Assembly (NCBI GenBank): GCA_041737965.1
Contig: JBGSQT010000021.1
Location: 2,959 to 66,958 of the forward strand
Length of the DNA: 64,000 bases
Origin: Spirochaetota bacterium
GTDB taxonomy: Bacteria > Spirochaetota > UBA4802 > UBA5550
Direction: 5' to 3'
A program made the position numbers and the translations under genes. Position 1 is the stretch's first letter; every line of letters starts with the position of its first letter. Positions 1 to 17,500 of the stretch are shown in pieces. The notes under the pieces are model-generated. The model was not told where the DNA came from, did no database searches, and saw only the letters and a list, made by a program, of their open reading frames with translations.

Positions 1-1181
1 GCGGAATCGTCCGCGAGCACCGAACTATCGCCCCCCTGTTCGGACCGTATCTCAACCACCTGCGGTCCCGCCGAGCGCTTGCCGTTGGTGAAAAAGCGGT
101 ACCGATAGACCCGGTCCAGCGGATTGTCGTACAGATCGGCGATCGATTTCGACAGGGTGAGCAGATAATGTTCGTCGCTTTTCAGCGGCTCCCGGAATCT
201 GACGGTCACCCGGTCCGGCGGGCTTCCGGGAATCAGATAAAAGTCGGCGCCGTTGGAGATCGTAATCGCCCCCTGAAGATTGCCCGATTTTACGTTTTCA
301 CTGAACTGCACGATAATGTCGCAGTCCTTTTCCACAAGCATGGTTTCGGCCGCGCCGGTGGGGTCGGCAAGGGTCACGGACCCTCCGTCTTCGGGATCTG
401 GCTGGGCTGCCCAGAGCACCGCGGGAGGCTGGAAGTCGTTCCCCACCGTGAAGTTGAAGAAACACTCCTCCCTTACGGCGTTTCCGCCCGGGTCCTTTGC
501 CGCAGTAAAAACTGTCACCGAATACGTGGTGCCGTAGGGGAGGGGATAGGTGGGATCGAACAGCGCGGCGGTTACCATCCGGTTCTGTACTGCGTCGAAG
601 CGTTCCTCAAAGCGGATGATTCCCGCCACCGATGGTGATATGGAAAATCCCCGGTGGATGCTGTCGTAGTCCATCGGTTCCGAGAAAATTATCTCGATAT
701 TCTGATGCGGGTCCGCGATAAAGGCGTTGTGCGCCGGCGTGTGACGGACGACCTCCGGCGGCGTGATGTCCGAGCCGACATAAAATACCGACGAATAGGG
801 CCCGGCCAGGTCGTTTCCCGCGGTGTCTTCAGCCGCGGCGGTGATCATTACGGTGTATATCCGGCCGCCGGTGAGCCCGCCGCCCGTGGGATGAAAAGTC
901 ATGATCCTGTTTCCCGGGTCCCAGGTGAAATACCCTTTCACCCTTCCGCCGGAGGAGGAGAGCGTGAACTCGTTTTCTGTCTTGATCCGGTCCATCTCCC
1001 TGCTGAAATAGACCGTGACCGCGGCGTCCTCTCCCACGTTTTCCTCCCGGTTCGCGGGGATCGACCCCATGACTGCGGGCTGGGAAAAATCGAAATTGAA
1101 TGTCCCGAGAAAATTGTCCACCTCGCAGGAGGTCAGCAGCAGTAAAAATGATGCGAATAAGGGCCTGATAACGCGTCTCAT
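1..1181 (-). CDS. Ig-like (SbsA/Big_5-type) domain lipoprotein, C-terminus beyond window edge
   Basis: Absent from the ORF track because it runs off the left edge. Reverse complement from ATG at 1181-1179 reads MRRVIRPLFASFLLLLTSCEVDNFLGTFNFDFSQPAVMGSIPANREENVGEDAAVTVYFSREMDRIKTENEFTLSSSGGRVKGYFTWDPGNRIM... Lipobox L-T-S-C. More than 100 codons hand-translated without a stop. Its ATG overlaps the stop of 1178..2956 (ATGA). Same module style as that upstream paralogue. Confidence 0.7.
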   Translation of the reverse strand, partial: MRRVIRPLFASFLLLLTSCEVDNFLGTFNFDFSQPAVMGSIPANREENVGEDAAVTVYFSREMDRIKTENEFTLSSSGGRVKGYFTWDPGNRIMTFHPTGGGLTGGRIYTVMITAAAEDTAGNDLAGPYSSVFYVGSDITPPEVVRHTPAHNAFIADPHQNIEIIFSEPMDYDSIHRGFSISPSVAGIIRFEERFDAVQNRMVTAALFDPTYPLPYGTTYSVTVFTAAKDPGGNAVREECFFNFTVGNDFQPPAVLWAAQPDPEDGGSVTLADPTGAAETMLVEKDCDIIVQFSENVKSGNLQGAITISNGADFYLIPGSPPDRVTVRFREPLKSDEHYLLTLSKSIADLYDNPLDRVYRYRFFTNGKRSAGPQVVEIRSEQGGDSSVLADDS

Positions 1182-2956
1182 GGCAGTTTCTCCTTGAACT
1201 CAAACGAGAATTTATTTTCCATCGTGTTCCCCGGCGAGTCCCTGATGCCGCCGTTCCCCCCACAAAGGGAGAACCGGTAGAGTACCGGAATCGGCTCGCC
1301 GTGCAGAAGGCCGGCGATGCATATCCTGCCGACGCCGGCGGAAACCCAGTCTATATCGATCACTCTCGGCGCCGTATACGGATCGTAATCTTCCACCAGG
1401 TAATTTTCAAGCAGTGACGTTTTGTTCATTGAAACCTCCGCCCCGCCGACTTCCCTGATGAATTGGACCATGAAGCAATACCTGAAACCGTTTCCGTCAC
1501 CGGTATCGACGTAGTGGTCAATCGTCACAGGCCACGGGATCGCGTTTCCGGAAAAGAGAAGGTTTGCCGCGTCATCCGGCAGCGCGTCCCTGTCGCCCGA
1601 CCCCCATACCTTCCCGACGGTGATGTGTGTGGATTCGATCGCGGTCGTCCGGACGATCACCGAATAAGGCTCCGGGAGGCGCAGTGAATGGATGTCCTTC
1701 GCACCCGTGTCAACGGCGATCCGGTACGCCTGTTCGGTCTGGAGCGGGTTTTCGATATGGTAGCGCATCACCCGGTCCGAAAGCCAGGTCACGTACCCGT
1801 CCGCGGAGGGGGTTATCGAAAAGGCCGATTCCACGCTCGCCTTGTCCATCGGCTCGCTGAAACAGGTGTACACCGTGCTCATGGTGCGGGCGATGCTGTT
1901 TTCAATCCCTGATTCCGGCGTGTACCAGAAGGGGTCCGCGATGCCGCCGGTTTCGTTTATTCCCAGGACAGACGGCGGCTCCGAATCATCCCCTGCGATG
2001 AGGATGAGCGTGAAATCCCGCGCCATGGGATTCCCTGCCGGGTCCTCGGCAGCGGACCCGACGGTGACCGTATAGGTCTTTCCGTATTCCAGCCTGGCGG
2101 AGGTGAACCGGTAGGTGAGGATTGTGCCGTCCGGTGACCACTGGAAAATGCCGGACACGTAGGGTGAGATGGAAAAGGCGGCCTGGGTTTTTTCCCGGCC
2201 CATGGCCCTGGTGAACGTGAAGGTGATCTCCGAAAGCGTTGACGGATCGGTCACCGCGCCGCCGTTCACGTGCGCCGGAACGGATGACGCCACGCCCGGA
2301 TTCGCGGCATGGTCACCCACGTAGAAATCCGACAGAAAGGCGGCGGAGAGCTTCCTGCCGTCGCGGCTCCTGACGCTCGCCGGAATCTCGACGGAATACC
2401 GCTCCGCCATCTTCAGCTGGTACCGGGGGACGAACCTGAACGCGCTTCTGCCGATCCATGAAAAGCTTCCCTCCACCTTTCCCGATGCGCCGGAAAGGGA
2501 AAAGCCGCGTTCCACATCGGGTGCGCTCGCGTCCGTATTAAAGAAGACTTCAACCGCAGTGTCAGGATCGACCCCGGTCTGGCCCGCCATGGGGACGCAC
2601 TGTGCGACATCGAAGTCGTCGAAGTTGAAAAGCTGCGAACCCTCTCCGCCGCATCCGCCGCTTATAAAGACCGCCGCAATAATCGCAGCCAGCCGCGAAA
2701 CGAGGGGAGCCGCCTTTTTCCGGAATCCGTCATTCCCGCGAGGCGCACCGTCATCCCCGCGAGACGCACCGTCATCTCCGCGAGACGCACCGTCATTCCC
2801 GCTGCTGTCACCGTCATTCCCGCGAAAGCGGGAATCCACTTCAGGAAATCTGTCGACATTCCCGCGAAAGCGGATTCTCCCGGCAGGCCGGGACTTCGCT
2901 CCGGCCTGAATGACAGTATGGGAAATGATCGAATCGCGATAAGATTCTTGTTTCAT
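1178..2956 (-). CDS. Ig-like (SbsA/Big_5-type) repeat lipoprotein with REP-derived N-terminal extension
   Basis: 592-aa ORF. Repeated modules of the SbsA-Ig type (PMAGQTGVDPDTAVEVFFNTD.., ..ITFTFTRAMGREKTQAAFSISP.., ..CFSEPMDKASVESAFSITP). Signal-peptide-like RKKAAPLVSRLAAIIAAVFISGGC with Cys at residue ~102. Residues ~25-78 are translated REP-like repeats (RFRGNDG, SRGDDGA). No in-frame ATG/GTG/TTG closer to the lipobox, so the start is uncertain. Confidence 0.75.
   Translation of the reverse strand: MKQESYRDSIISHTVIQAGAKSRPAGRIRFRGNVDRFPEVDSRFRGNDGDSSGNDGASRGDDGASRGDDGAPRGNDGFRKKAAPLVSRLAAIIAAVFISGGCGGEGSQLFNFDDFDVAQCVPMAGQTGVDPDTAVEVFFNTDASAPDVERGFSLSGASGKVEGSFSWIGRSAFRFVPRYQLKMAERYSVEIPASVRSRDGRKLSAAFLSDFYVGDHAANPGVASSVPAHVNGGAVTDPSTLSEITFTFTRAMGREKTQAAFSISPYVSGIFQWSPDGTILTYRFTSARLEYGKTYTVTVGSAAEDPAGNPMARDFTLILIAGDDSEPPSVLGINETGGIADPFWYTPESGIENSIARTMSTVYTCFSEPMDKASVESAFSITPSADGYVTWLSDRVMRYHIENPLQTEQAYRIAVDTGAKDIHSLRLPEPYSVIVRTTAIESTHITVGKVWGSGDRDALPDDAANLLFSGNAIPWPVTIDHYVDTGDGNGFRYCFMVQFIREVGGAEVSMNKTSLLENYLVEDYDPYTAPRVIDIDWVSAGVGRICIAGLLHGEPIPVLYRFSLCGGNGGIRDSPGNTMENKFSFEFKEKLP
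2728..2878. repeat. REP-like palindromic element cluster: 4 tandem 21-bp units + full palindrome + degenerate copy
   Basis: 21-bp units cgtcatYYccgcgagRcgcac at 2728-2748, 2749-2769, 2770-2790 and 2791-2811. Palindrome cGTCATTCCCGCgaaaGCGGGAATcc at 2812-2837. Degenerate cattcccgcgaaagcggattc at 2856-2878. All lie inside the 5' part of ORF 1178..2956. Confidence 0.9.
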
Positions 2957-3039: not shown

Positions 3040-6000
3040 TCAAGTATGCGAGGGATCGAACGCTGATCCATGGCGTTCCTCCGTTTGTGTGTGCCTGAGT
3101 TTGTAGCCGAACAGATACGAAGAGATCACCGGAATCACCAACAGGGTGAGGGCCGTGGACACGGCGAGGCCGCTGATCACCGTGGCCGCCAGGGGGCGCC
3201 ACAGGTTTGACCCGTCGCCGCCGGAAAGCAGCATCGGGAGCATGCCGAGGACGGTGGTGATTTTGGTGATGATGACCGGCCGCACCCGTGAAACGCACAC
3301 CTCCTTTATCGCGCCGTCCAGGGAGACGCGCGTCACCGCGCCGTCGAGATATTTCGCGTTCAGCGCGTCCACCAGCAGTATTCCGTTGTTCACCGCAATT
3401 CCGGTGAGGGTGATGACGCCGATGTACACCGCGATGTTCAGGGTGGATGCGGTCACGAAAAGTGCCACGATCACGCCGATGAGCGCCATCGGGACCGTGG
3501 TGAGGATCACCAGGGGGAGGTCCAGGGACTCGAACTGCGACGCCAGCAGCATGTAGACCAGCAGCACCGCCAGGAGCACGGCCGCGGTGACCGCCTTCCT
3601 GTTTTTCCTCATCCGCTCCAGGCTTCTGTCCATCTCGAAGGCGTACTCCGGAGAAAAGCTGACCGTTCCGAGCGCTTCCGCTATTCTTTCAGCAGCCTCG
3701 TCGTACGCCAGGTCGCCGATCCCTGCGGTGATGGTGACGCTTCTGCGGCCGTTCCGCCTCCACACCCGCGTTTCCGCCTCCTTCTCCCTCAGCGTCACCA
3801 GCGCGCTCACCGGTATTGCGTTGCCTTCGCCGTTCCGGACAGTGTAGTTCATAACGTCGGCGATGTCGTCCCTGTGGCGCTTTTCGTAGCGCACCCGCAC
3901 GTCAATCTCCCGGTCCGTGTCGATGAACTTGGTGATCACCGGACCGTAGAGGGCGGAGCGGAAAAACTCGATGATGTCGGACACCGTTACCCCTGTGGCG
4001 GAGGCCCGCTCCCGGTCCACCAGGAGGGAATATTCCGGCCTCCCTTCCCTGAACCGCAGCACGCACTCCTCGATACCCGGCACCTGCCGGATTTTCCCTG
4101 CGGCGTCCCTGGCGAGGTTCCGGAGCACGCCGTTCTCGTCTCCCAGAAAGTGTATGTCCAGCTCCCGGGAGGCGATCTCGTTTGCATCCGAAATATAGGC
4201 GAAACCGCCGTCCTGCCGGATAAGGCCGTTCAGCTCGTCCCGGATCCTGCCTTTGATTTTCCTCTGTTCACTGAGCGAGGCGATGCCTTCGTCGAAGGTT
4301 ATTGCGACCGTGCCGCGCCATTTTTCCACCCTGGTGGTGATTGTCTCTGCGATCCCCATCTTCCGGAGAACCGCCTCCGCTTTTCTCACCGAAGCGTCCG
4401 TGGCTTTGAGGGTGGTGCCGGTGGGGTATTCCATGTACACGTAAAACTCGCGGCCGGCTGACGGGTCCACCACCTCGCTTTTCAGGAAGAAGGAGAGGAT
4501 CACCGCGACCGCCGCCGCGCCTGCCGTGTACAGAATGACGCGGCCCCTGTTGCGGAAAGAGAGGTCCAGCGCCCGTTCATAGAAGCGTAGGAAATTATTT
4601 TCTCCCCGGTCGATCGTCCCTGCTATTTTTGCCAATAGACCGTCATCCCCGCGAGGCGCACTGTCATTCCCGCGAAGGCGGGCCGCGCGTTTTTTCGTCA
4701 TCCTGTCGGCGCTCGGCATTTGGCCATCCTGACCAGCAGAATCTACTTTATGAAATCCATCGAATTTCCCGTAGCAGCTCCCCCCGTCAGGCAGGGGCGT
4801 CGCTTTCCCGGTTTTAGCCGGGAGAATGAGAGTGCTTGAGTAGTCATTCCCGTAGTGGATTCCCGCCTGCGCGGGAATGACGGAAACGAGGGAACGTTTC
4901 GCCTGCGCGGGAATGACGGAAACGAGGGAACGTCCCGCCTGCGCGGGTACGGCCTTTTCGGTTGTCCTGACCGCTCTTGACACGCCGACATCGTGCCGGC
5001 AGGAATGACGGAATATGATGCTGAAAAGGTACCGATACATCATCTGAAGCTTATCCGCGATAATCCCGGGGATGCGCTTCTCCGGGAAGGCCGTCGTGCC
5101 CGTAACCCCTGCCGATAAGAGCACCGGTATGAGCACGACGGACACGAACATCGACGCCAGGAGCGCGGCGGAGACGGTGAAGGCCAGGTCGCCGTAGGTG
5201 CGCCGAGTCTCCGCGTTGCCGAAGACTACGGGGAGGAACACGATCACCGTGGCCAGGGTTGAGGCCACGATGGCGCTTCGCACCGAAAGGACGGACCGGT
5301 GGATGGTGTCGTCGGTGATCGCGCTGTTCTGGAACACCGATTCCGCGATGATGATTCCGTTGTCCACCACCATGCCGGCACCTAGCGCGAGCCCCGAAAG
5401 GCTCATCACGTTAATGTCGATTTTCCCGAAATACATCATGGCGAATACTGCCGAAAGAGAGAAGGGAATCGACAGGCTGATGGCCAGCACCGGCACCGTT
5501 TTTCGGATAAAGAGCGCCAGGACGATGATTACGATGACCACCCCCCAGACGCCCGCCTCTGCCACGGTGCGTACCGCGCGGCGTATGTAATCACCCTGAT
5601 TGTAGAGGATCCTTCCGCGCAATTGCGGGTTTTTCAAGATAACGTCCGCCGCCTGGCTGCACACCGAAAGGGCGTTGGAGTCCGCCGACCGGTGCACGTA
5701 CAGCGTGATCCGCTCCGCGCCGTTCAGCCGGCTGATTTCGTCCGCCTCCCTGAATGAGTAGCCCACCGAGGCCACGTCTCCCAGCCTGACCAGGGAACCA
5801 CGGTTCGCGGTCATCAGCGCCGCCCCGGCGATCTCCGAAGGGGAGCGGAAGCGCGACGAGGTGTTCACCATGTACTCGGTCCCACCGGATTCCAGGACCC
5901 CGCCCGGAAGGGAGACGTTCCCGTCCCGCACCGCGGATGCGACGGTGCCGAAGCTGATTTCACGCGACTCGAAGCGGTCGCGGTTCACGTCAACGTGTAT

Positions 6001-6540
6001 CTCCCTGAGCATGCCGCCGGCCACGTAAATCTCCGACACGCCGTCGATCCGCCGCAGCATCGGCTTCAGCGTCCGCTCCGCGATCTCCCGGACCTCCGCG
6101 GGCGAGGCGCCCTTCTTCTCGACCGTGGCGATGATCACCGGACGGTCCGACGGGTCGTAGCGCACCACCACCGGCTCCTGCACCTCCCGGGGGAAGCTCC
6201 GCCGGATGAGGGATATCCGTTCGCGCACTTTCAGCGCCGACAGCCGCATGTCGGAGTCAATCGTGAAGGTGATGTTGATGCGCGATTTCCCCTCCTCGGA
6301 CACTGAGTCAATCGATTCGATCCCCTCCACCATCTTCACGATTTTTTCAACCGGTCTGGTGATAATCCGCTCGACGGTGTCGGGCGATACGCCCGGGTAC
6401 TCGACAATCACCGAAATCCCCGGCGACTGCGCCTGCGGCATCAGCGAGACGGCGAGTCGGTCGCAGCTTATGGCGCCGATCACGGCGATGGAGGCGCAGA
6501 GCATGTAGGCGCTGATCCTGTTCTCGAGGAAGTATTTCAC
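3040..6540 (-). CDS. RND efflux permease (AcrB/HAE1-like) carrying a ~130-aa repeat-derived insertion in the TM6-TM7 linker
   Basis: 1166-aa ORF with a 12-TM/two-large-loop RND layout. Conserved RND blocks SLSGLALGAGMVVDNGIIIAESV and TLTGIAVNNGILLVDAL. Start overlaps the stop of the upstream RND gene (6537-6540). About 130 aa longer than its 1036-aa neighbour, and the excess maps to 4.6-5.0 kb. Confidence 0.9.
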   Translation of the reverse strand: MKYFLENRISAYMLCASIAVIGAISCDRLAVSLMPQAQSPGISVIVEYPGVSPDTVERIITRPVEKIVKMVEGIESIDSVSEEGKSRINITFTIDSDMRLSALKVRERISLIRRSFPREVQEPVVVRYDPSDRPVIIATVEKKGASPAEVREIAERTLKPMLRRIDGVSEIYVAGGMLREIHVDVNRDRFESREISFGTVASAVRDGNVSLPGGVLESGGTEYMVNTSSRFRSPSEIAGAALMTANRGSLVRLGDVASVGYSFREADEISRLNGAERITLYVHRSADSNALSVCSQAADVILKNPQLRGRILYNQGDYIRRAVRTVAEAGVWGVVIVIIVLALFIRKTVPVLAISLSIPFSLSAVFAMMYFGKIDINVMSLSGLALGAGMVVDNGIIIAESVFQNSAITDDTIHRSVLSVRSAIVASTLATVIVFLPVVFGNAETRRTYGDLAFTVSAALLASMFVSVVLIPVLLSAGVTGTTAFPEKRIPGIIADKLQMMYRYLFSIIFRHSCRHDVGVSRAVRTTEKAVPAQAGRSLVSVIPAQAKRSLVSVIPAQAGIHYGNDYSSTLILPAKTGKATPLPDGGSCYGKFDGFHKVDSAGQDGQMPSADRMTKKRAARLRGNDSAPRGDDGLLAKIAGTIDRGENNFLRFYERALDLSFRNRGRVILYTAGAAAVAVILSFFLKSEVVDPSAGREFYVYMEYPTGTTLKATDASVRKAEAVLRKMGIAETITTRVEKWRGTVAITFDEGIASLSEQRKIKGRIRDELNGLIRQDGGFAYISDANEIASRELDIHFLGDENGVLRNLARDAAGKIRQVPGIEECVLRFREGRPEYSLLVDRERASATGVTVSDIIEFFRSALYGPVITKFIDTDREIDVRVRYEKRHRDDIADVMNYTVRNGEGNAIPVSALVTLREKEAETRVWRRNGRRSVTITAGIGDLAYDEAAERIAEALGTVSFSPEYAFEMDRSLERMRKNRKAVTAAVLLAVLLVYMLLASQFESLDLPLVILTTVPMALIGVIVALFVTASTLNIAVYIGVITLTGIAVNNGILLVDALNAKYLDGAVTRVSLDGAIKEVCVSRVRPVIITKITTVLGMLPMLLSGGDGSNLWRPLAATVISGLAVSTALTLLVIPVISSYLFGYKLRHTQTEERHGSAFDPSHT
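4641..4947. repeat. REP-like elements inside RND gene (21-bp units, palindrome, 36-bp tandem units)
   Basis: cgtcatccccgcgaggcgcac (4641-4661) and tgtcattcccgcgaaggcggg (4662-4682) match the units at 2728-2837. gtcattcccgtagtggATTCCCGCctgcGCGGGAATgac at 4843-4881. 36-bp unit cgcctgcgcgggaatgacggaaacgagggaacgtNN at 4864-4899 and 4900-4935, with a partial copy at 4936-4947. Translated in frame as VSVIPAQAKRSL / VIPAQAGIH. Confidence 0.9.
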
Positions 6541-9500
6541 TTTTTCCTCCCCCTGTCACGGAAGGTCACGGCGAACACCGTGGGGATGAACACCAGCGTG
6601 AGGAACGTGGAGACCGTGATGCCGCCGAGCACTGTTATCGCCATCGGCTGCTGCAGCTCGGTCCCCTCGCCGATACCGACCGCCACCGGAAGGAGCGCGC
6701 ACACGCTCACCAGGGTGGTCATGAGAATGGGTTTCAGCCTGCGCCTGCCGGCGCTCACGATCGAATCGCGGACCGAAAGCCCCCGGCCGAGCTCCAGCAT
6801 GATGTAGTCGAAGAGCACGATGGCGTTGTTCACCACGATCCCGGCAACCAGCACGATGCCTATGCCGGAATTGATGTTCAGCGATTTTCCGGAGAGGAGA
6901 AGCGCCCCTGATACGCCGAGCGACGCCACCGGAATGGAGAGCATCACGATGAGCGGGCTCGTAAAGCTCTGGAACTGCGCGGCCAGCACCATGTAAATGA
7001 GGACGATGGCAAGTATCAGTGCGAAGCGCATCTCGCCGAGCACTTTTACCGCTTCGTCCAGTTCGCCGATGAGCCTCACTTCGTACCCTTCCGGCAGACG
7101 AAGCCGCGAAACTGCTGCCCGCACGCCGTTGATGACGCCGCTGTCGTCTCCGGTCACGTCCGCGGTCACCACGTTCACCCTGCTCTGCTCGGAGCGGATG
7201 ATTCTGCCAGTGCCGGTACCCTCGGTGACCGCCGCGAACTGCGACACCGGTACCACCGCGCCCGATTCCGACTTCACCATGATCCGGCAGAGCGACTCCC
7301 TGCCGTCGCGGTCCGCCTTCCGCAGACGCACGCGCATGTCGATCTCCTCGTCCCGGTCCCGGAAACGGGTCACCACCTCGCCGTGGAGCGCCGCCTTGAT
7401 GGTGGCCGCGAGGTGAAACACCGGCACGCCAAGCGAGGCGAGGCGGTTACGGTCGATTTCGATCTTAAGCTCCGGATCGCCCCGGTCGAAGAGGGAGGAT
7501 GCGTTGGTTGCGCCCGGGACCGTCCCGATGGCGCGTTTCACCGCGTCGCCGACGGATTTCAGCATCGAAAACTCGCTTCCGTACACCTCAAGGTGCACCG
7601 GCTTGCGCCTCCTGGCCACCACAGACTCGATGACGCTCTCCTTCAGTATGACGTCAGCCGTGACCCGGTCGCCGAAGGGGACGTCCTTCCTGAATCGCCG
7701 GATTATCTCGTCGACGCGGGGCCGGTGCCCTTTTGACAGGAGCACTTTTACCAGCACGCTGTTGGCGCGCCTGCCGGACGTCCGCTCAGTGACGCTCTCC
7801 TCCGGGTCGGACCCGATCCTGGCGAAGACCGCGCGCACGTAGGATCTTGTCCGGAAATAGCCCTCCACCCGCGCGCTCAAAGCCGCGGTCTCCTCCAGCG
7901 TGGTCCCCTGCGGCAGCGTGAGGTCCACGGTGAACTCCCCCGGATCCACCCGGGGCATGAGCTCGGCCCGTACCAGCGGAAAGAGCGCAAGCCCCAGCGC
8001 CATCACCGCGACGCCGCCGTACAGAACGTGTTTCTTCTTTGATAATGACGCCTCGATTACCCTGACGTAGAGCTCCTCGGTCCGGTGCATGATGCGGTCC
8101 GCCGTGTCGTGGATTCTCTTCTGGATGTGGGAACCTCCGGAAAGAAATTTCTTCAGCCGCTCCGGTATCGGCACATTTACCGTGGCCAGCATCGGAATGA
8201 GGGTAACGCTCCCCACGGTGGAGAAGATCTGGGTGAAGGTGATGGTGAGGGCCAGTTCGCCGAATAGCGCGCCGGACAGGCCGTTCAGGAACACGATGGG
8301 GAGGAACACCACCACCGAGGCGACGTTCGACGCGATGTTGGCGAGCATCACCTCGTTGGTGCCGTCAATCACCGGCCGTATCGGGTCCTTCCATTTCGTA
8401 TTTTTTTCGTTCCGCTTCAGGTTGATGGACTCCAGCACCACGATGCCGGAATCGGTCATCATGCCGATGGCGAGCGCCAGCCCGCCGAGCGACATGGTAT
8501 TCAGCGATATCCCCCTGAAATACATGAGCCCGAATGTGCCGAGGATCGATACGGGGATCGCCGTGGCGATGATCACCGGCGCGCGGAGCTCCCCGAGGAA
8601 GACGTAGAGCACCAGGAACGCGATGAGCCCCCCGATGACCGCTTCGGAAAACACGTTGTCCACCGAATTTTTTATGAACTCGGACTGGTCGTATACGGGG
8701 CGTATTTCGAAATCGTTCCGGTACTTGTCCCGGATGCGGATGAACTCCTCCTCGATGCGGCGGCATGTCTCCACCGTGTTTTTTCCCGGCTCCTTGCGGA
8801 TGTAGAGCGCCACCGCCTCGCCGCCGTCGCTGCGCACCAGGGACTTCCGGTCGCGGAAGGAGTCCGTCACCGTGCCCACCTGGCGCAGGTACACCGGAAC
8901 CCCCGCCTCGTTCCGACCCACTGCCACGCCGCGGATATCGTCCAGGGATTTAAACTCGCCCACGGCCCGCACCAGGTACTCGACGGTACCCCGCTCGATG
9001 TACCCCGCGGGAAAACTCTGGTTTTCCGCGGCCACGCGCTCCATCACCTCGGCCAGCGAGAGGGAATGTGAATAAATTTTGGCCACATCCAGGTCGATGT
9101 TGATCTGCCGCCGGTATCCGCCGCCTGCCTCCACGAGCGCCACCCCCTCGACCCGCTCCAGATAGGGGATTATCTCCCGCTCGATGCGCCGCCGCACCTG
9201 GCGGAAATCGCCATTTTTGTTTACAATGGAATAGATCATCACCGGTTCTGCCCGGGGATCGAACTTCACCACCATGGACAACTCCGCGTCCTGCGGAAGC
9301 TGTCCCCTGGCCAGGTCCACCTTCTCCTTTGTCTCCACCAGCGCCAGGTCCATGTTGGTGCCCCACTGAAAGGAGGCGGTCACCAGCGAGATTCCCTCAA
9401 GCGACTCCGACTGCACCGACACCACGCCGTTCACCGCGCTGACCGCCTCCTCGACGTGACGGGTCACCAGGGTCTCGATCTCCGAGGGGAGGGCGTTCTC

Positions 9501-9647
9501 GTAGGGGGTGATGACCGTGAGCTTCGGGAACTCGATGCTCGGAAGGAGCTGCACCGGCAGGCGGCCGAGGGAGATCACCCCGAGAAGGCATATCCCAAGG
9601 TATATCATTGCGGTGGTGACCCGCCGGCGTATGAGCTGTTCGATCAT
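6537..9647 (-). CDS. RND efflux permease (AcrB/HAE1-like), second paralogue of a tandem pair
   Basis: 1036-aa ORF. RND blocks SLGGLALAIGMMTDSGIVVLESI and GIVLVAGIVVNNAIVLFDYI. 4-nt overlaps with both neighbours (9644-9647, 6537-6540). Confidence 0.92.
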   Translation of the reverse strand: MIEQLIRRRVTTAMIYLGICLLGVISLGRLPVQLLPSIEFPKLTVITPYENALPSEIETLVTRHVEEAVSAVNGVVSVQSESLEGISLVTASFQWGTNMDLALVETKEKVDLARGQLPQDAELSMVVKFDPRAEPVMIYSIVNKNGDFRQVRRRIEREIIPYLERVEGVALVEAGGGYRRQINIDLDVAKIYSHSLSLAEVMERVAAENQSFPAGYIERGTVEYLVRAVGEFKSLDDIRGVAVGRNEAGVPVYLRQVGTVTDSFRDRKSLVRSDGGEAVALYIRKEPGKNTVETCRRIEEEFIRIRDKYRNDFEIRPVYDQSEFIKNSVDNVFSEAVIGGLIAFLVLYVFLGELRAPVIIATAIPVSILGTFGLMYFRGISLNTMSLGGLALAIGMMTDSGIVVLESINLKRNEKNTKWKDPIRPVIDGTNEVMLANIASNVASVVVFLPIVFLNGLSGALFGELALTITFTQIFSTVGSVTLIPMLATVNVPIPERLKKFLSGGSHIQKRIHDTADRIMHRTEELYVRVIEASLSKKKHVLYGGVAVMALGLALFPLVRAELMPRVDPGEFTVDLTLPQGTTLEETAALSARVEGYFRTRSYVRAVFARIGSDPEESVTERTSGRRANSVLVKVLLSKGHRPRVDEIIRRFRKDVPFGDRVTADVILKESVIESVVARRRKPVHLEVYGSEFSMLKSVGDAVKRAIGTVPGATNASSLFDRGDPELKIEIDRNRLASLGVPVFHLAATIKAALHGEVVTRFRDRDEEIDMRVRLRKADRDGRESLCRIMVKSESGAVVPVSQFAAVTEGTGTGRIIRSEQSRVNVVTADVTGDDSGVINGVRAAVSRLRLPEGYEVRLIGELDEAVKVLGEMRFALILAIVLIYMVLAAQFQSFTSPLIVMLSIPVASLGVSGALLLSGKSLNINSGIGIVLVAGIVVNNAIVLFDYIMLELGRGLSVRDSIVSAGRRRLKPILMTTLVSVCALLPVAVGIGEGTELQQPMAITVLGGITVSTFLTLVFIPTVFAVTFRDRGRKK

Positions 9648-11083
9648 GGCGACGTTGTACCCGCCCGCGCCGGGACGACCATTCCCGGATACACCGTGTG
9701 TACGCCCTCGGCCACCACAGTGTCGTTTTCCTCTATTCCCCGGAGCACCTCGATCTCGCTTCCGAATTCCGTGCCAAGCGAGACCCTCTGGCGGAAGGCG
9801 ATCCCCTTTTTCACCAGATACAGCTCCCCCTCGGTGCCGATCACCGAGATGAGCGACGACCGCGGCACCATGAGCCGCTTCTCCGGGCTCCCCACGCGTA
9901 TCTTCGCGCGCGCGAACATGCCGGGGACAAGGGCCATGCCGGGATTGGCCGTCTCCGCCTTCACTTCCACGGTCCTGGTTTTCACGTCCAGGACGGGGGA
10001 GATGCGGGCGATGCGGGCCTCAAAAGCCCTGTCTCCCAGTGCGTCGACGGTGAAATCGACCTTCTGCCCCTGTTTCAGCTTCTTTAAATCCTTTTCGTTT
10101 ACGTTGACCGCGACATAGACCCTGTCGATGTTCATCACCACCGCGATCACCGAGTCGCTCCTGATCATCTCACCCGCCTCCATGTTCTTGGACGCCACGA
10201 TGCCGTTGATGGGAGAACGGATCACGGTTTCCCGGAGCATGAGCCCGGTTGCCTTCACGTTGTTTTCCGCCAGGCGTATCCTGGATTGCGCCGACTCGAG
10301 CTCGGCGTACTCGATCCTCGTGTTGATTTTTTTCAGGAGCTCGATCTTGTCCCTTTCGCCCTGGGGGAGCGCGTACCCGGCCGAGACGATATCCTCGTCG
10401 CGAAACCCGACGAGCTGTATCTCAAGGTCGGCCCCGGTGTTGAGAAGCGAGGTGTGCACCGTGGTGTGCTGGGCCTTCATGGTCCTCAGCTCGCTTTCGC
10501 TCACTCCCCCGGCCTCGAAGAGCTTCTGCCTGTTTTTCAGCACGCGGTCCATGTTCTCGAAGGACACCTTCTTGTCGTTGAGATCGGCCCTGGCCTTCTG
10601 GATCATCTTGAATTTCACCTCAACGGCCTTGAGCGCGTTCTCGTATTTCGCCCTGGCGAGGTCAAAGGCCTTCCGGGCGATGTCCAGCTCCGCCTCCTGC
10701 TGTTTCAGCTGGATCTCCAGCGGCAGGCGCTCGATCTCGGCGATAAGCGAACCTGCGGCGACCCTGTCCCCCGCGTTGACACGGATTCCGGCGATCCGCC
10801 CCTCCACCTTTGAGGCGACCGCCACCTTTTCCCTGAAAATGATCTGGCCGAGCATCTCCAGCTCCTCTGCCGCCTCTTTCCGTTCGGCCCTGCATGTTTC
10901 CACGTCCCCCGCGCTTATGACGCCCGCGTCCTTCCGGTCCGCCTCGCCGCTCCGTAACGACACCGCGCAGCGCACGACCGCCACCAGCAGCACCAGCGCG
11001 ATCGCCGCGATGCCAGGTTTGGGGAGGCTCCATATTCTCTTCACTTTCTTCGTTACGCCTTCATTCATTTTCATACCGTACAC
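9644..11083 (-). CDS. RND-type periplasmic adaptor (membrane fusion protein, HlyD family)
   Basis: 479-aa ORF. N-terminal TM (IAAIALVLLVAVV), lipoyl-like segment (GRIAGIRVNAGDRVAAGSLIAEIE), long coiled-coil hairpin, and C-terminal beta-barrel/MP-type segment (GMFARAKIRVGSPEKRLMVPRSSL). Start among M1/M4/M6 unresolved. Overlaps the TolC-like gene end. Confidence 0.88.
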   Translation of the reverse strand: MYGMKMNEGVTKKVKRIWSLPKPGIAAIALVLLVAVVRCAVSLRSGEADRKDAGVISAGDVETCRAERKEAAEELEMLGQIIFREKVAVASKVEGRIAGIRVNAGDRVAAGSLIAEIERLPLEIQLKQQEAELDIARKAFDLARAKYENALKAVEVKFKMIQKARADLNDKKVSFENMDRVLKNRQKLFEAGGVSESELRTMKAQHTTVHTSLLNTGADLEIQLVGFRDEDIVSAGYALPQGERDKIELLKKINTRIEYAELESAQSRIRLAENNVKATGLMLRETVIRSPINGIVASKNMEAGEMIRSDSVIAVVMNIDRVYVAVNVNEKDLKKLKQGQKVDFTVDALGDRAFEARIARISPVLDVKTRTVEVKAETANPGMALVPGMFARAKIRVGSPEKRLMVPRSSLISVIGTEGELYLVKKGIAFRQRVSLGTEFGSEIEVLRGIEENDTVVAEGVHTVYPGMVVPARAGTTSP

Positions 11084-12683
11084 CCGCTTTTATTGTCGAG
11101 AGCCGGAGCTCTCCGATGTCGAGCCCCATGGCGATCTCCAGGCTGGACGCGGTGACCAGGTATTTCACCCGCGCGTCGAGGTGGGCCACCGCCGCCCGGC
11201 CCCGCTCCAGCTCCTTTTTCACCAGCTCGTACCGTATCGTCTCCCCCATGTCCGCCTTCAGACGCTCGATGCCGAGCAGGGCATCGTACACATCCAGCCA
11301 TTTTTTGGAGAGGCGTATCATCTTCCATGAATTGTCAAGGTTCATGAGCCCGGTGAGCACCTCCAGGGAAATCCGCTCCCTTGTGTCCAGGGCCTTCTCT
11401 TTTGCGGTGAGCATGTTGATGCGGCTTTCGATGATGCCGCGCCTGTACGAGAGGCTGTCCATGATGCGCACCGACGCGCTCTTTGACGCGGCCCTGCCAG
11501 CCCCGTTGTCCGTGCTGTCGTAGGACAACCCGGCGTCGCCGCTGGAGCCCCAGAGGGCGGAAGAGACCTTGAACATAATCCCCCAGTTCCTGTCGCGCGG
11601 AAGGATCCTGTCCGCGAGGTTGTCGTCGGAGAGCGAATATTTGAGGCCGACTGAAAATTTCGGAAAGTAGTAGAGCCTGTCCAGCTGATGGGCCCTCCTG
11701 TGTATTGCGTACGACACATCGCCAGACTCGACTTCCTTCCGGTTTTTCAGCGCCAGGGCCACGTATTCGTCCACGTCGATATGCTTACCCCCGGCCGGGG
11801 GAGGATAGAGCGCATAATCCGATTCAACGTCGCCGGTAAGCTCTATGGGCCGTCGCCATTTGATCTTAAGGAACTGCTTGAACCTGTTGAGCGCCGTGGC
11901 GTACTCGTCCAGGGCACGCTCCATGTCGAGCCGCGTTTCCATAACCTTGGTTTCGATCTCCAGCACGTTCAGCGGCGTCGCTTCCCCCAGATCCCGCTCC
12001 ATCCTGATGAAGGCGAGCTGGCGCATGCCGTTCTCCAGCGTCTTTTTGTGTATGGCCGCGGTCCCCTTGAGCTGGAGCGTTTCGAGATACGCCGCCTGGA
12101 CCTGCATGATGAGCCGGTTCAGCGCGATGCGGTAGTCGTTCCGGGCAAGGATCGATTCCAGCTTCGCGATATCGTAGGCAAGCCCCCTCTTTCCGCCGTC
12201 GTACACCGTGATGTTGGACTCGAAGGAAAGGGTGTGCCGCCGCGAGTCGGTGTCGTGTCTGCCTGTCTGTTCGCTCTTCAGGTAGGACACCGAAAGTGAG
12301 GGGAAATAATCGCGCCATTTTTCCAGTATGCCGCAACTGTAGATTTCCTTCTTCGCGCCGATTGCCCGGAGCTCGAAATTGTTGGTGATGGCGATGCCCA
12401 GGGAGTCCTCCAGCGTGAGCGTCAGCGGCTCCGCATCCCCGCCGGAGATGGAGAGCCCGCTTCCGCCGCTATCCTTATCGTCACCGACACTCTCCCTGCT
12501 GTCATTCCCGCTGACGCGGGAATCCGCCGTTTCAACGGGGTCTTCGAATTCCGAAACGGTACCCGGAGAAATGACCGAATCGTCCGCGCCTTTTCCCGCC
12601 GATTCCTGCGCGGCAACGCCCCCCGCCAGCAGTCCGGGAACGATCAGCGCCGCGGCGCATAATGTCGCAATAAATCGAACCAT
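11061..12683 (-). CDS. TolC-family outer-membrane efflux protein
   Basis: 540-aa ORF. Signal peptide MVRFIATLCAAALIVPGLLAGGVAAQ. Two OEP-type helical repeats (LEDSLGIAITNNFELRA.., ..YVALALKNRKEVESGD..). Position immediately upstream of MFP + RND genes. Confidence 0.85.
   Translation of the reverse strand: MVRFIATLCAAALIVPGLLAGGVAAQESAGKGADDSVISPGTVSEFEDPVETADSRVSGNDSRESVGDDKDSGGSGLSISGGDAEPLTLTLEDSLGIAITNNFELRAIGAKKEIYSCGILEKWRDYFPSLSVSYLKSEQTGRHDTDSRRHTLSFESNITVYDGGKRGLAYDIAKLESILARNDYRIALNRLIMQVQAAYLETLQLKGTAAIHKKTLENGMRQLAFIRMERDLGEATPLNVLEIETKVMETRLDMERALDEYATALNRFKQFLKIKWRRPIELTGDVESDYALYPPPAGGKHIDVDEYVALALKNRKEVESGDVSYAIHRRAHQLDRLYYFPKFSVGLKYSLSDDNLADRILPRDRNWGIMFKVSSALWGSSGDAGLSYDSTDNGAGRAASKSASVRIMDSLSYRRGIIESRINMLTAKEKALDTRERISLEVLTGLMNLDNSWKMIRLSKKWLDVYDALLGIERLKADMGETIRYELVKKELERGRAAVAHLDARVKYLVTASSLEIAMGLDIGELRLSTIKAGVRYENE
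12501..12525. repeat. solo REP-like palindrome inside TolC-like gene
   Basis: GTCATTCCCGCtgacGCGGGAATCC; translated in frame as ..RVSGNDSRE.. in the post-signal-peptide linker. Confidence 0.85.
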
Positions 12684-12687
12684 GGGT

Positions 12688-13464
12688 TCACTTCGGCAGT
12701 GAATCGATCCTTCCGTGCAGCGCCCGGACGAAACGTTTCGACACCGCCCGCATCACCTCCACGTCCGCGAGCCTGTCGGAACCGGAAAGGTACGCCTCGC
12801 CGATCTTCGCGCCGTCCCGGTCATGAACGCTGAAGGTGACCAGGGTGTGCACGTCGATGTCGGTGAACTCGCCGGTTTCCTGTTCCGACACCGCCCCCTG
12901 GATGAAAAGGTCGGCGCCTCGGGCTCTGCAGGCCTCGCGGACCCTTTCAGGACCGAGTATGGCCGGCCCGCGCTTCGCGTCGGCGCCCGTGTCCCGGTAC
13001 TGGTCGACCGTGTAGCCGAGCCGGAAGAGCTCGTACCCGACGGCGTCCCTGAAGTTCTGCACCAGATAGGGGTTGAAAGACACCTGCCGCCGGTCGAAGT
13101 TGCCGATGACGATTTTTGACGGGCGCGCCGCCATGTTCATGTCCCGTGCCGTGAAATCGAAATGAGCGCAGGACAGGATGCCCGCAAGCAGAAGCGATAC
13201 CGCAATTAAAAGCGCACCGGGAATCCGTATCTTCAGTTTCCACAGGTTCGGGCCGATCTGCTCGATCGCATCACCGTCGGCGTCATTGCTCCCTTTATTC
13301 CGGTGAGCGCGGCTGTTCTCACGTTCCTGTGAGACTCCGGTGTCACCGGTGATGCCGCGTACCCGGATTCTCTCAAAAACCCGTTCAACTCCCCCGCTGC
13401 TGGTATCCGATTCCTTTTTTTTGATCTTTTTCCTTCTTAACGTCTTTTTTTGCCCTTTCATCAT
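12688..13464 (-). CDS. membrane-anchored/lipobox protein with LpoB/CsgG-like (TolB-N-like) periplasmic domain (tentative)
   Basis: 258-aa ORF. Very basic ~85-aa N-terminus, then IPGALLIAVSLLLAGILSC (lipobox-like), then KIVIGNFDRRQVSFNPYLVQNFRDAVGYELFRLGYTV, a pattern reminiscent of small envelope lipoprotein domains. 4-nt overlap with the upstream TPR gene. Domain assignment is from memory only. Confidence 0.55.
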   Translation of the reverse strand: MMKGQKKTLRRKKIKKKESDTSSGGVERVFERIRVRGITGDTGVSQERENSRAHRNKGSNDADGDAIEQIGPNLWKLKIRIPGALLIAVSLLLAGILSCAHFDFTARDMNMAARPSKIVIGNFDRRQVSFNPYLVQNFRDAVGYELFRLGYTVDQYRDTGADAKRGPAILGPERVREACRARGADLFIQGAVSEQETGEFTDIDVHTLVTFSVHDRDGAKIGEAYLSGSDRLADVEVMRAVSKRFVRALHGRIDSLPK

Positions 13465-14081
13465 TCAATCTCCTTTTTTATAGTTTCCAGGTTTTTCACC
13501 GAATGCCCGGCGGCCCGCGCCATGCCGGCCGCAGCGGCGATTTCCTCTCCGGACTTGTCCTTTAATCCCATGCGGAGGTAGAGGACGCTCAGGTTGGCCC
13601 GGGCGTTCAGGAAAACCTCTTCCTCCATCGCGATGCTTTGATACTGGCGGAGCGCGTCGGCATATTTCCCGTTTTTTTCGTACAGAAGAGCCAGAAGCTG
13701 GCGGGCCGGGAGGTGATGGGTGTTCTGCTCCACGACTTTCAGAAGGCATGCCACCGCCTCGCCGTCCTTCGCCGACGACACCGCCAGGGTCCTCCCCTTC
13801 CAGTAGAGCGCGCCGATGTGGTCCGGGTTGCGGTCCAGAATTTCATCCAGGCGCTCCAGGGCGCAGTGGAAATTTTTTTCGAAATAGCAGATTTTCGAGA
13901 GCATCAGGTACGCGTTCAGCAATGAACCGTCGCCGTCAAGGGCCCTCTGAAATAACTCCTTTGCCCGCCTGAATTCTTTTTTCTGAAACGCCCTGGCGCC
14001 TTTCCGGTAGAGTTCAAGCGGGCTTTCGCCGCCGCCGCAGGAAAGGCACAGGATGACCAATACCGCAGGGAGAAATCTCAT
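13461..14081 (-). CDS. TPR-repeat lipoprotein
   Basis: 206-aa ORF. MRFLPAVLVILCLSCGG lipoprotein signal. Several 34-aa TPR-like repeats (..YRKGARAFQKKEFRRAKELFQRAL.., ..ALYWKGRTLAV.., ..ARQLLALLYEKNGKYADALRQY..). First gene of the minus-strand operon. Confidence 0.8.
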   Translation of the reverse strand: MRFLPAVLVILCLSCGGGESPLELYRKGARAFQKKEFRRAKELFQRALDGDGSLLNAYLMLSKICYFEKNFHCALERLDEILDRNPDHIGALYWKGRTLAVSSAKDGEAVACLLKVVEQNTHHLPARQLLALLYEKNGKYADALRQYQSIAMEEEVFLNARANLSVLYLRMGLKDKSGEEIAAAAGMARAAGHSVKNLETIKKEIE

Positions 14082-14596
14082 AATGTCACCTTTTCATCGA
14101 ATGGCTGTGTGATACCCGATAAACGACGGGGAGGGGGAAAAGATAAAAAAATTTTTCAGAGAAGGCGGGAAAGAACGCGTTTGCGGAGGGGAGTGAGAGT
14201 AGAAGATGCGTGCTTGAATCGTATCGGGACTCTCTGTCCGAATGAAGAAAAGCCGTTGGATAAAGCGGGACAAATCCGGCATAACCCCGCCTCCTTGTTG
14301 AAGTACATGAAAGGAATGGAATATTTTTCCGGAAAGAAACGCGCGGGAAGGAATCTAAACGAGGTGATTTTATTTAAGTCTGCTTTTATGAAATACACGA
14401 TATGATTATCTTGGATAAGAATCGGGATTCAATAATTTTTGAATGGAATGGATACAACTTTAATTTTTTTCGAATGAAGGCATTCCTCAGGAACCATGTC
14501 ATATTCATGTAAGGAAAGGCGAAAGTATCGCGAATCCGCCTTCCCCGGGCCTCTCCCGGTCGATCAATTTCGACGATCCCTCCTTCACGAGCCGTC

Positions 14597-17500
14597 TCAT
14601 CTCAGGATTGCTGTTTTCCTCGATCCCGCGTTCAGGACGAACTTCCGGTACTGGCCGGGCGATGTTTCCAAATGGTAAACTCCCGGATCGACTGTTATAA
14701 AGCATTTCCCCTCATCGTCGCTCTGGGCGGAATACTTTTCATCATAGGAGACCATCCTGCCCCCCTCCATGGTCGGGTTCCTGTAGAGCACGATGGACCT
14801 TCGGCCGGGGCACTCGACGCGGAGCAGACTGTCGCGCTCCATGTCGAGGGTGAGGATGTTAAGCCCATTTTTAACCGAGATCGTTTTATCCACCAGGCCC
14901 CCTCCGCCGCCGAAGACAAAACGGGTGCTCCCCTCTTCGATATCCCCGGCGAAGCCGACGCCCTTATCGCCCACCTTGATCGGCCTGGTCGTACCCTGGA
15001 TCAGCTTCGCCTGATATCCCTCCTGGAGCTCCCTGCCGCGAAAGAGCCTGAAAATCAGAACGGTGGATTCCGCGGCGAGAGTCTTGGCGATATCGGCGTA
15101 GACCTGGTACTGGTCATCCTTGATTGATTCGCAATCGACCACTTTCAGCGTTCCCTTTTTCTGCGCCATCACCAGCATCCCCCTTGACCCGACCTTGAAG
15201 TACCGCTCCTCCCCGTTGCTGTAGAGTGATAGTTTCCCGTTGGCATCCGGCCGCAGCGCGTCAAGACGGAACGCCAGGGCCCCCCTGTCAATGTAGGGAA
15301 CGGCGCGGTAGAAGTGCCCGTCATGCTTGTCTACCTTGAAGGAGTACAGGGCGTTGTTGCCAAGTTCCACCGACTCTCTTAATACGCCCTGACCCGGATG
15401 CTTAAAGATATGGACCAGGCATATCCCCGGTTCCGAGTAGGTGAGGGTGCAGGTTTTTCCTGCAACTATGTTTTCGGCGAATATAAAGCCCCACATGTCG
15501 GTCTTTGCGTTCCTCGTCGTCTTGCCGTCATGCAGGGAGACCGTCTTGTTCCTCAGCGGAATTCCCTTTTTGTCCTTGATCCGGGCGATCAGACAGGGAT
15601 TTTCCTTCGGATAGATCGCGCTCAAAACGCGGAACCGTTCATCCATGGAGCCGAAGAGTTCGTCGTTGCGGGGCAGGTTGTCAGGAGGGTTCCCGTCCTT
15701 CGCCGATATCAGGACCGCGTCGTCAATCCTGCCGCTCGGGGAGAAGAAGAAGTCACCGGTGTCGCAAAAAACGCGGTACATTCCCGACTCGTCGCTGGCA
15801 ACCTTCTGCGATATCGGCGTTAAGGAAAAATTCTTGAAGGCCGGGACCAGGTGGATGAAGGTAAGCGGCGACTGCCAGGGGAACATTCCACCGCCGCTGA
15901 AGGTTTTCATCGCCCTATTCTTCAGCGCCGCCGTGTCCACCAGGAGACCCGCCGCACCGGGAGTGACGGCGAATTCTTTCGTTACCATCAGCCCCTTTTC
16001 GTAATAAAACAGCCGGTACCGCCGGTTCTCCCGGTATTTCTCCATGAGGAAGAAACCATCACCGTCCATCGGGTTTTTCACCATCGAATTATCCGCTGTG
16101 TCGTATATCCAGAGAGCGCCTCCGGTACGGATTTCCCCTTCATGGCGGATAACCCCTGCCGCGAAGTCGGCGTTTCCCCTTGCCGCTTTCTGCGCCTTTA
16201 TGAAATCATCCAGAGTCAGCCCGGAGCGGTCATATACCCGCTTTGCCGCGGCTCCACCCATCGGAAAGATCGCCAGTCCCTCCCCGTTGGGGTTGTCCGA
16301 CAAAACATACTCGCCTTGGGGAAAGCTCACCTCGATGCGGTTGTCCCGTGCCGGGTATTTCATGGGGGACTTCCCTCCGTAGTACTCATAGAAATCAGCC
16401 TTCGCGATGAATGACGGCTCATTCGAGACGATCTCGGTGAATCGCTCCTTGCCCGGGTCAACGGCAAGCTTTACGATTTCATCGCCGGTAAAGGAAACCG
16501 CCTTCTTGATGTAGAGGTTTCCCGCCGAAAGGAGGAGCCACATGTCGCCCTTCAGGCTCTTCGAACCGAAATAGGCGACTCCCGGGGCTTCGGCCTTTAT
16601 CGACACCGGGGGCTGGTTTTTACCGAAAAGGGTGATGCTGTCGAATGCATCGGCGCAGGGCACGCCCGTCTCATCGTAGAGAGAGCACACCAGGGCCGGC
16701 CCCCTGGTGATGGATTTTTCCGACAGGTACGCTTCTGCCGGGTCACCCGACTGCCGGCCGGGAGGCACGCGGACCGTCTTCGACTTGGCAAAGGATACGG
16801 AATAACTTTTCTCTGCAAAGGAGGCCTCCGCCATTTCCGCGTCGACGATACAATGCACCGCCCCCTTCTGGTCCGTGAAGAGGGGGTATTTGATCCCCTG
16901 CACCGTGAGAAGGACCGGCGCATTTTTCAGGGCGCCCCCCTTTTCGTCACGAAACAATATCCTCTTCACCTTTCCGGCGTCCGTGAAGTCAATGTCGAAA
17001 TGATACTGACTGATCCCCTTGAATCGAAAAGGAATAACAGCGAGACAGGATTTCAATGTAACGGAAAGGACCTCGTCTTGGTCCTTGTCAAAATACCCGG
17101 CGTCGGTGAGTATAAGGGTGAACCGGCGGGCCCTGTTTGACGTGATCGCACGGATCATGGAACCGCCCACATCAATTTTCATGCCGTCAAGGTCTCGATG
17201 CCCTCCGCCGAAGAAGTTCGATGAAGGGATGTGCTTGAAAGAAACAACTGCATCATCCAGTTCAAAAGTTCCGCTGCTGTTCCTGATCTTAAAGATAAAG
17301 GCGGGATGTGCCTGCTTTCCCTCGAAGACCGCCCGGTACACCGGCCAGGCCTTGGGCTCTTCCTGGAAATCAACGATATACATATCATCTACCCTGGCCA
17401 CTTCCGATTTGAATTCGTTATTCATGATATGATAGGGATCGGCGAAATTGAGGGTCAGCTGGGGGTCTACGCAAAGCCATCCCGCCTTGGGGTGGAAGTA

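Follow-up and report, generated by a model that had tools for sequence, protein, structure and literature searches.

An NTS/dRS3-type repeat mosaic in frame within the central linker of a spirochaete RND permease, probably a tolerated passenger

In a stretch of 64,000 nucleotides from a Spirochaetota metagenome-assembled genome (MAG; contig JBGSQT010000021.1 of assembly GCA_041737965.1), hereafter called the window, we found that the gene of an HAE1-type RND permease carries a 375-nt mosaic of palindromic repeats, element B, in the reading frame of the gene itself. Judging from sequence comparisons and a structure prediction, element B is quite probably a non-autonomous mosaic of the NTS/dRS3 repeat family (NTS, Neisseria Transformation Sequence) that is tolerated as an in-frame passenger in the linker of the permease, with the pump most likely functional. 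The features on which this reading turns are the following, with positions counted from the first nucleotide of the window.

3040..6540, minus strand: RND (HAE1-type) permease gene, 1166 aa (open reading frame (ORF) list, translation, Pfam ACR_tran)
4639..5013, minus strand: element B, NTS mosaic in frame, 375 nt, 125 codons, F510-G634 (delimited by alignment to orthologues)
6537..9647, minus strand: insert-free RND paralogue, 1036 aa (ORF list, Pfam ACR_tran)

Position of the insert and its absence from orthologues

The 1166-aa permease is the second of two adjacent RND genes, with the paralogue and the genes of a membrane-fusion protein and an outer-membrane factor upstream, and its GTG start overlaps the stop of the paralogue by 4 nt. 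Its homologues point to Spirochaetota as the phylum of the organism, and the identical protein is known from a single NCBI contig of 85 kb. An earlier note, made from the DNA letters and their translations, had drawn attention to the unequal lengths of the two permeases (1166 against 1036 aa), and both ORFs were confirmed. It had also placed the excess at 4.6-5.0 kb, in the linker between transmembrane helices (TM) 6 and 7; protein alignment locates the block at 4639-5013, between TM6 and the I-alpha helix. When aligned with its closest full-length orthologue (P0002; 1031 aa, 76% identical, syntenic at locus L002 and without the insert) and six further sequences, the permease displays a single large block that has no counterpart. 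Counted between the end of TM6 and the conserved IDRGE in the I-alpha helix, the linker is 165 aa long; in 59 homologues it has a median length of 30 aa and does not exceed 61 aa, and the homologue with 61 aa itself bears an NTS pair. Equally long linkers free of repeats, which the earlier note had named as an observation that would speak against an insertion, were thus not found among these homologues. The boundaries of element B were set by protein alignment, since the linker DNA is too diverged from that of L002 for a delimitation at the nucleotide level.

Outside the insert, the protein has the features of an HAE1-type RND permease, with ACR_tran across both halves and an AcrB-like predicted fold. 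The Pfam match (E=1e-184) comes in two stretches with a break at about residue 515, and sequence matches in the PDB end at query residue 476-534 and restart at about 649. An AlphaFold2 (AF2) model built with 60 homologues reached a mean pLDDT of 82.5 and a pTM of 0.76, and Foldseek comparisons with AcrB, MtrD, AdeJ, BpeF and CusA gave TM-scores (on target) of 0.84-0.88. The pLDDT falls below 50 only in residues 482-496 and 508-632 and in the C-terminal tail (1162-1166). Of these, the insert residues 508-632 are modeled without secondary structure (pLDDT ~30), between helices 493-511 and 635-663. The insertion site is the cytoplasmic linker that joins the two 6-TM pseudo-repeats, not the essential core; the suggestion that the repeats sit inside an essential transporter core therefore does not hold, as the model has a disordered inter-repeat linker at this site. 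A, G, S and R are abundant in the insert peptide, the charge of which (K+R 19 versus D+E 11) fits a cytoplasmic loop following an even-numbered TM helix. A Pfam search of this peptide gave no match, and a protein search with it returned only spurious repeat ORFs.

At the position of the proton-relay pair D407-D408 of AcrB, D-N or D-S is found in both permeases as well as in the consensus of the spirochaete homologues (VVDNGI and MTDSGI, as compared with VDDAIV). In the 1166-aa permease, this position corresponds to window positions 5330-5360 (residues ~393-394).

Identity and spread of the repeat family

With at most one mismatch allowed, the motif GTCATTCCCGC has 14 matches in the window, where 1.65 are expected and no more than 5 were obtained in any of 100 shuffles; this bears out the palindrome family seen earlier in this tract. 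Eleven of the 14 matches fall in two clusters, at 2729-2865 and 4642-5009. The NTS, CGTCATTCCCGCGMAVGCGGGAATCYRG, is a 28-nt oriented extension of the dRS3 sequence ATTCCC-N8-GGGAAT (Nat Commun 2025, PMC11893778), and is bound and cut by SsnA, a small GIY-YIG nuclease acting on single-stranded DNA (PMC11893778). NTS-like Ssn-related motifs (SRM) have been found across bacterial phyla, often flanking ssnA (PMC11893778). In Neisseria, NTS copies concentrate around membrane-protein genes and lower transformation, and about 2% of the copies in N. meningitidis are intragenic (PMC11893778).

Two copies in the window, 2812-2839 on the plus strand and 4855-4882 on the minus strand, differ from CGTCATTCCCGCGMAVGCGGGAATCYRG by one mismatch each and fit the SRM regular expression, while a third, at 12500-12527, has four mismatches to the NTS consensus. 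All three are perfect dRS3 sequences, each with an 8-bp stem and a 4-nt loop (-8.6 to -9.0 kcal/mol, z=-3.3 to -4.5). By BLAST of the 375-nt block against annotated replicons, only the NTS unit of 28-36 nt was matched, with 94-100% identity, in Neisseria gonorrhoeae, Photobacterium and Azospirillum. The exact NTS pattern was identified in at least 120 loci from more than 10 phyla in a scan of species-representative genomes; among the matches listed are Bacteroidota, Chloroflexota, Planctomycetota, Verrucomicrobiota, Nitrospirota, Gemmatimonadota, many Proteobacteria and others. One of these loci (L060 4362-4882, a Sphingorhabdus MAG) has a GIY-YIG ORF at 4446-4775 (Pfam E=4e-13) between inverted NTS copies, which reproduces the published NTS-ssnA-NTS arrangement.

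The earlier note had thus been right in calling the repeat widespread, but not in assigning it to the REP type. By its sequence, the repeat of element B is a member of the NTS/dRS3/SRM family rather than a RAYT-associated REP, and a classical REP of that kind was rejected as the motif fits NTS/SRM. The peptides VIPAxAGI, SFPRxRES, RHSRxGGNP, DSRLRGND and IPAxAGMT, some of which had been recognized as translations of the repeat in three frames, are indeed such translations and turn up in spurious ORFs of many metagenomes. Other candidates for the insert were also rejected, namely an intein, an intron or a known RNA (no Pfam domain, and the sole Rfam match below threshold) and an ssnA remnant within element B. 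The Rfam match in question, at 4822-4905 on the minus strand, is to the Francisella small RNA FtrB (RF02748; 26 bits against a gathering score of 66, E=0.2). Since the paper on Francisella small RNAs (PMC3091763) contains the string GCGGGAATGAC, FtrB may include an NTS-like repeat.

Internal architecture of element B

Element B is composed of the following parts.

4999..5013, minus strand: 5' terminal partial NTS TTCCGTCATTCCTGC, the left inverted end of element B (inverted pairs I10, I15 and I16; motif match 4999-5009)
4861..4947, minus strand: 36-bp (12-codon) tandem array, 2.4 copies, 92% matches (TRF; families D6-D8)
4855..4882, minus strand: complete NTS hairpin CGTCATTCCCGCGCAGGCGGGAATCCAC, 8-bp stem, 4-nt loop (1 mismatch to the 28-nt consensus, SRM match)
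4683..4842, minus strand: non-NTS core, ~160 nt, with the hairpin ATTCTCCCGGC-N5-CCGGGA and a segment encoding VDSAGQDGQMP
4639..4689, plus strand: 3' end, one 21-bp unit and a degenerate NTS (families D1 and D4, inverted pair I2), read as RLRGNDSAPRGDDG

On the sense strand, the partial NTS (5013-4999) is followed by three 36-bp units, the last of which ends in the complete hairpin (4882-4855), then by the core (4842-4683) and finally by two copies in opposite orientation (4689-4639). As these closing copies are opposite to those at the 5' side, the ends of element B are inverted repeats. Each 36-bp unit consists of the NTS 5' half plus GTTCCCTCGTTT and encodes (R/K)SLVSVIPAQA. The tandem unit of this length had been noticed before at nearly the same coordinates, and TRF recovered it. 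Likewise, the 21-bp unit said to be common to both repeat clusters was recovered as family D1, at 2726-2832 and 4639-4682. The complete hairpin folds as single-stranded DNA with -8.9 kcal/mol (z=-3.6) and has 97-100% identity with copies in Neisseria gonorrhoeae and Azospirillum, while the NTS at the 3' end has six mismatches to the consensus. As RNA or single-stranded DNA, element B is predicted to fold end to end (-173 kcal/mol, z=-4.2).

The non-NTS core, part of which is homologous to a second mosaic in the window (element A, see below), has no further copy in the window and no match in metagenome contigs or plasmids. A 20-mer from it gave only chance matches in metagenome contigs.

Open frame, integrity of the pump and assembly

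The block reads through without a stop, and the peptide quoted in the earlier note matches the ORF translation exactly. Out of the six frames of the 375-nt block, only the one in use is free of stops, the other five having two to six stops each, and in composition-matched shuffles a given frame is open in 1.5% of the cases. The length of the block is divisible by 3, as are the tandem periods of 36 and 21 bp. Of the 146 columns with 90% or more conservation among the other homologues, the permease furthermore retains 140 (96%), placing it 20th out of 60, i.e. in mid-range.

These observations bear on whether the pump has recently been disrupted and is becoming a pseudogene, its frame being open merely by luck. 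Such a scenario could draw on the size of the insert and its absence from the nearest full-length orthologue, on a neighboring paralogous permease that could cover the function, and on the ease with which short units are read through, a single NTS unit being open in five of its six frames. Over the full 375 nt, however, a single frame is open and the length is a multiple of three, while shuffles are open in 1.5% of the cases. The conserved positions are kept as well as in other homologues, the same insert is found in frame in a diverged lineage (P0017, see below), and the conservation of the RND pair at the syntenic orthologous locus suggests that both permeases are needed. We consider ongoing decay very unlikely: the intact frame, the modeled fold and the conserved columns argue against it. 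Of the three fates that the earlier note had left open for the pump, i.e. functional, regulated or decaying, the last is the least supported, on account of the frame, the AF2 model, the conserved columns and P0017.

An assembly artefact, in which two gene halves were joined through a foreign repeat or the copy number is wrong, was weighed against a second assembly of run SRR28170473 (Logan). Its contig L001 corresponds to window positions 4904-19647 (14,744 nt, 100% identical) and covers the 5' junction plus 110 nt of element B. It breaks at 4904 because of repeated 31-mers inside the 36-bp array, and both the break and the repeated 31-mers, together with the lack of a second contig across the 3' junction, count in favor of an artefact. 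Being 100% identical, L001 may derive from the same reads and hence tests the assembler rather than the sample. On the other hand, another assembler recovered the same 5' junction, a chimeric join would seldom preserve the frame and be free of stops, and an error in the 36-bp copy number would leave the frame unchanged. Moreover, an independent sample and assembly (JGI, P0017) has both junctions of a homologous insert in one ORF. An artefact is, in our judgment, extremely improbable.

NTS inserts in the linker of other lineages

A JGI metagenome contains a partial orthologue, P0017, whose insert agrees with element B in both site and frame. Compared with the insert-free P0002, it is 92% identical after the linker and 81% identical over a 175-residue stretch ending in the linker. 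Its insert reads FTHS-VIPAAAKR-RAGIHSRNE-VDSAGQDGRMP...RAARFRGND, followed by a further NTS-like stretch, and has several derived details in common with element B: the half-hairpin variant VIPAxAKR, AGIHxxN(D/E), the non-NTS sequence VDSAGQDGxMP and the inverted end RAARxRGND. These shared details indicate that the two inserts are homologous, although that of P0017 is shorter and large internal indels separate them. With a tree of the form (window,(P0002,P0017)), an old insertion followed by clean loss from P0002, a transfer by recombination and a repeated insertion at the same site are all possible.

A third orthologue, P0020 (53% identical, locus L123), has NTS sequence in this linker too, namely a short pair read in another frame (CHSCAGGNP...GIPA...VGMT), which is an independent event. 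Clearly the TM6-TM7 loop accepts such insertions, and it may even be favored by NTS. The empty site of P0002 reads ...CTTCACTCAATCC..., which resembles the NTS 5' end CGTCATTCC.

Neighboring NTS loci and other features

The remaining genes of the efflux operon, two further NTS loci and an adjacent lipoprotein gene are listed below.

9644..11083, minus strand: membrane-fusion protein gene (Pfam HlyD_D23)
11061..12683, minus strand: outer-membrane factor (OEP) gene of the efflux operon (Pfam OEP)
12500..12527, plus strand: single NTS hairpin, perfect dRS3, -8.6 kcal/mol, read as ADSRVSGNDSRE
2725..2919, plus strand: element A, second NTS mosaic, ~195 nt (TRF 21-bp (7-codon) array of 4.7 copies; NTS at 2812-2839; NTS-like at 2854-2873)
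1178..2956, minus strand: Big_5 lipoprotein ORF, 592 aa, its N-terminus running through element A (Pfam Big_5)

The gene order of the operon is the same in L001 and in the orthologous locus L002. Elements A and B align over ~147 nt with 69% identity, i.e. beyond the hairpins themselves. Element A is situated in frame between the ATG at 2956, which has the Shine-Dalgarno sequence AGGAG 9 nt upstream, and the lipobox of the Big_5 lipoprotein. Its translation contains ...DSRFRGNDGDSSGNDGASRGDDG...FRKKAAPLVSRLAAIIAAVFISGGC as well as ...DSRFRGNDGDSSGNDGASRGDDGASRGDDGAPRGNDG-FRKKAAPLVSRLAAIIAAVFISGGC, and reading from the ATG at 2956 gives an n-region of ~80 residues ahead of the signal peptide. 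The orthologous lipoprotein starts with MQRLLIACYCALIALTAATGC, directly with a lipoprotein signal peptide of 21 residues. As there is no other in-frame start between element A and the lipobox, the repeats must be translated unless the start of the gene has been lost. An extra gene for a 158-aa membrane protein lies between the second RND gene and the Big_5 lipoprotein gene in L002 (13065-13541), and a 158-aa gene is found at the same position in the contig of P0017; the window has no such gene, and has element A there instead.

The third locus, the hairpin at 12500-12527, is in frame in a low-complexity N-terminal linker after the OEP signal peptide, where the orthologue has an unrelated linker. 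No NTS was found in the remaining 51 kb of the window, and none above chance in the 23-kb orthologous locus L002. The linker of the OEP orthologue (L002 3900-4110) contains the degenerate repeats EIPALPG, AIPAVHD, TIPSIPAGHGDE and EVIPAGRL, and its DNA includes GTCATCCCGGCCGGCCGG; these could be old, decayed coding sequence derived from NTS, or coincidence.

Near-identical stretches of 50-110 nt also occur in neighboring genes of the window (29810-29925 versus 30750-30865, and 31215-31280 versus 32845-32910), suggesting a tandem paralogue family. One such pair encodes FWMGKYEVTQKQYEDIM, which looks like a formylglycine-generating-enzyme/SUMF1-type domain.

Passenger or functional insert

Element B probably arrived by NTS-associated mobility or by recombination, and would then have grown through slipped-strand duplication of the 36-bp and 21-bp units, in multiples of three, with selection on the pump presumably purging variants that were out of frame or contained stops. 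The insert would be read through as a basic, disordered cytoplasmic loop of 125 residues that leaves the fold untouched, and it would be a passenger without function of its own rather than a functional domain.

Alternatively, the insert could have been exapted or have become regulatory. Two lineages, with host proteins only ~76% identical, have both retained in frame a homologous insert with the conserved non-NTS core (VDSAGQDGxMP), and the RNA fold (z=-4.2) is predicted with end-to-end pairing. The three NTS loci (12.5, 4.6-5.0 and 2.7-2.9 kb) bracket the efflux operon with none in the other 51 kb, and in Neisseria NTS gather around membrane-protein genes and reduce transformation. Against this stand the absence of any Pfam match and of predicted structure (pLDDT ~30) in the insert, its absence from P0002, the 92%-identical relative of P0017, and the great differences in length and composition between the inserts of the two carriers. 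Nor does the 64-kb window contain ssnA, and three clustered loci in 64 kb are weak statistics. A functional insert is accordingly held to be unlikely. Under a bolder form of this alternative, likewise improbable, the TM6-TM7 linker in this clade of spirochaete RND permeases would be a recurrent, possibly sequence-directed landing site for NTS, with one insert retained in frame across lineages diverged by ~24% because it is now functional. The function, for which we would give no better prospects, could be that of a cytoplasmic linker domain or of an intragenic site for Ssn nuclease which, along with the flanking NTS loci, controls the recombination or the transformation of the efflux operon.

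Several points nevertheless weigh against a tolerated passenger as the explanation, or at least against its details. The nucleotide boundaries of element B rest on a fast-evolving linker, and no clear target-site duplication is present at 5013/4639, the empty-site DNA of the orthologue being too diverged to align. For the 3' junction, as for the number of 36-bp copies, support comes from one assembly, with no second contig retrieved via the downstream genes or the predicted partial product. An ORF for ssnA (GIY-YIG) is missing from the 64-kb window. Lastly, the non-NTS core is conserved between the window and P0017, so that the insert could be more than a neutral passenger.

If the passenger reading is right, selfish DNA inside coding genes, best known from Rickettsia, would extend to the widespread NTS/Ssn repeats and to Spirochaetota. 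The linker between the RND repeats would tolerate more than 100 extra residues, which would be useful for tags and fusions in AcrB-type pumps. For annotation, it follows that VIPAQAGI, RLRGND or RHSRAGGNP in a conserved protein should be taken as an NTS insertion, not as a new domain and not necessarily as a sign of a pseudogene. The presence or absence of the insert among close relatives also offers a natural system for the study of NTS movement.

Comparison with known systems

As in AcrB/MexB-type HAE1 pumps, the permease has a 12-TM fold with two porter domains, and is encoded in an operon with a membrane-fusion protein and an outer-membrane factor. It differs from these in the linker between TM6 and I-alpha, which is ~30 aa there and 165 aa here, and in the D-N found in this spirochaete clade where AcrB has D407-D408.

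With the NTS/dRS3 repeats of Neisseria and other bacteria, the window copies share the 28-nt motif (1 mismatch), the oriented CGTCA 5' flank, the 8-bp stem and the 4-nt loop, as well as an arrangement in inverted pairs and clusters close to membrane-protein genes. Unlike in N. meningitidis, where ~2% of the copies are intragenic, each of the three loci of the window is in frame within an ORF, and many of the copies are half-hairpins amplified as 21-bp and 36-bp arrays. The host is a MAG of the Spirochaetota, a phylum that a text search of PMC11893778 did not find, and its 64-kb window is without the ssnA gene.

The mosaics also resemble Neisseria intergenic mosaic elements (NIMEs) and MITEs, in which short repeat units lie between inverted dRS3/NTS copies in an element of less than 500 bp without transposase: they have inverted NTS ends, measure 375 and ~195 nt, contain no Pfam domain and are present as two related copies (A and B) less than 2 kb apart. 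Element B, however, is intragenic while those elements are intergenic, no target-site duplication was found for it, and its core has no other copy in the collections searched.

In-frame intragenic MITEs, above all the Rickettsia palindromic elements (RPE), are an established phenomenon (reviewed in PMC10969869). When 162 exact NTS copies in 120 loci from the species-representative scan were checked, a few were found to lie deep in conserved genes and in frame, in unrelated bacteria that include other phyla, namely an NTS pair within the Mur_ligase_M domain of the isolate Massilia sp. LXY-6 (L015 1561-1644), a copy in the anticodon-binding domain of a class I aminoacyl-tRNA synthetase (L099 4080-4104) and one in a UvrA-like ORF (L051 7193-7217). 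In view of these copies and of the RPE and MITE precedents, the present case is real but not unprecedented. The comparison with RPE drawn in the earlier note is apt, as element B is in frame in a conserved gene, is absent from orthologues and occupies a position compatible with the fold (AF2, AcrB match), just as RPE are palindromic mobile repeats found in frame at fold-compatible positions in conserved, unrelated genes whose orthologues lack them. The likeness is one of kind and not of family membership: the repeat family is another one, the unit of RPE is ~150 bp as compared with a 375-nt composite, and the Rickettsia hosts are obligately intracellular whereas the present host is free-living or environmental. 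What sets this case apart is the size of the insert (125 aa), the repeat family to which it belongs, the concentration of three in-frame loci in one 10-kb efflux region, and the recurrence of such insertions in the same pump loop.

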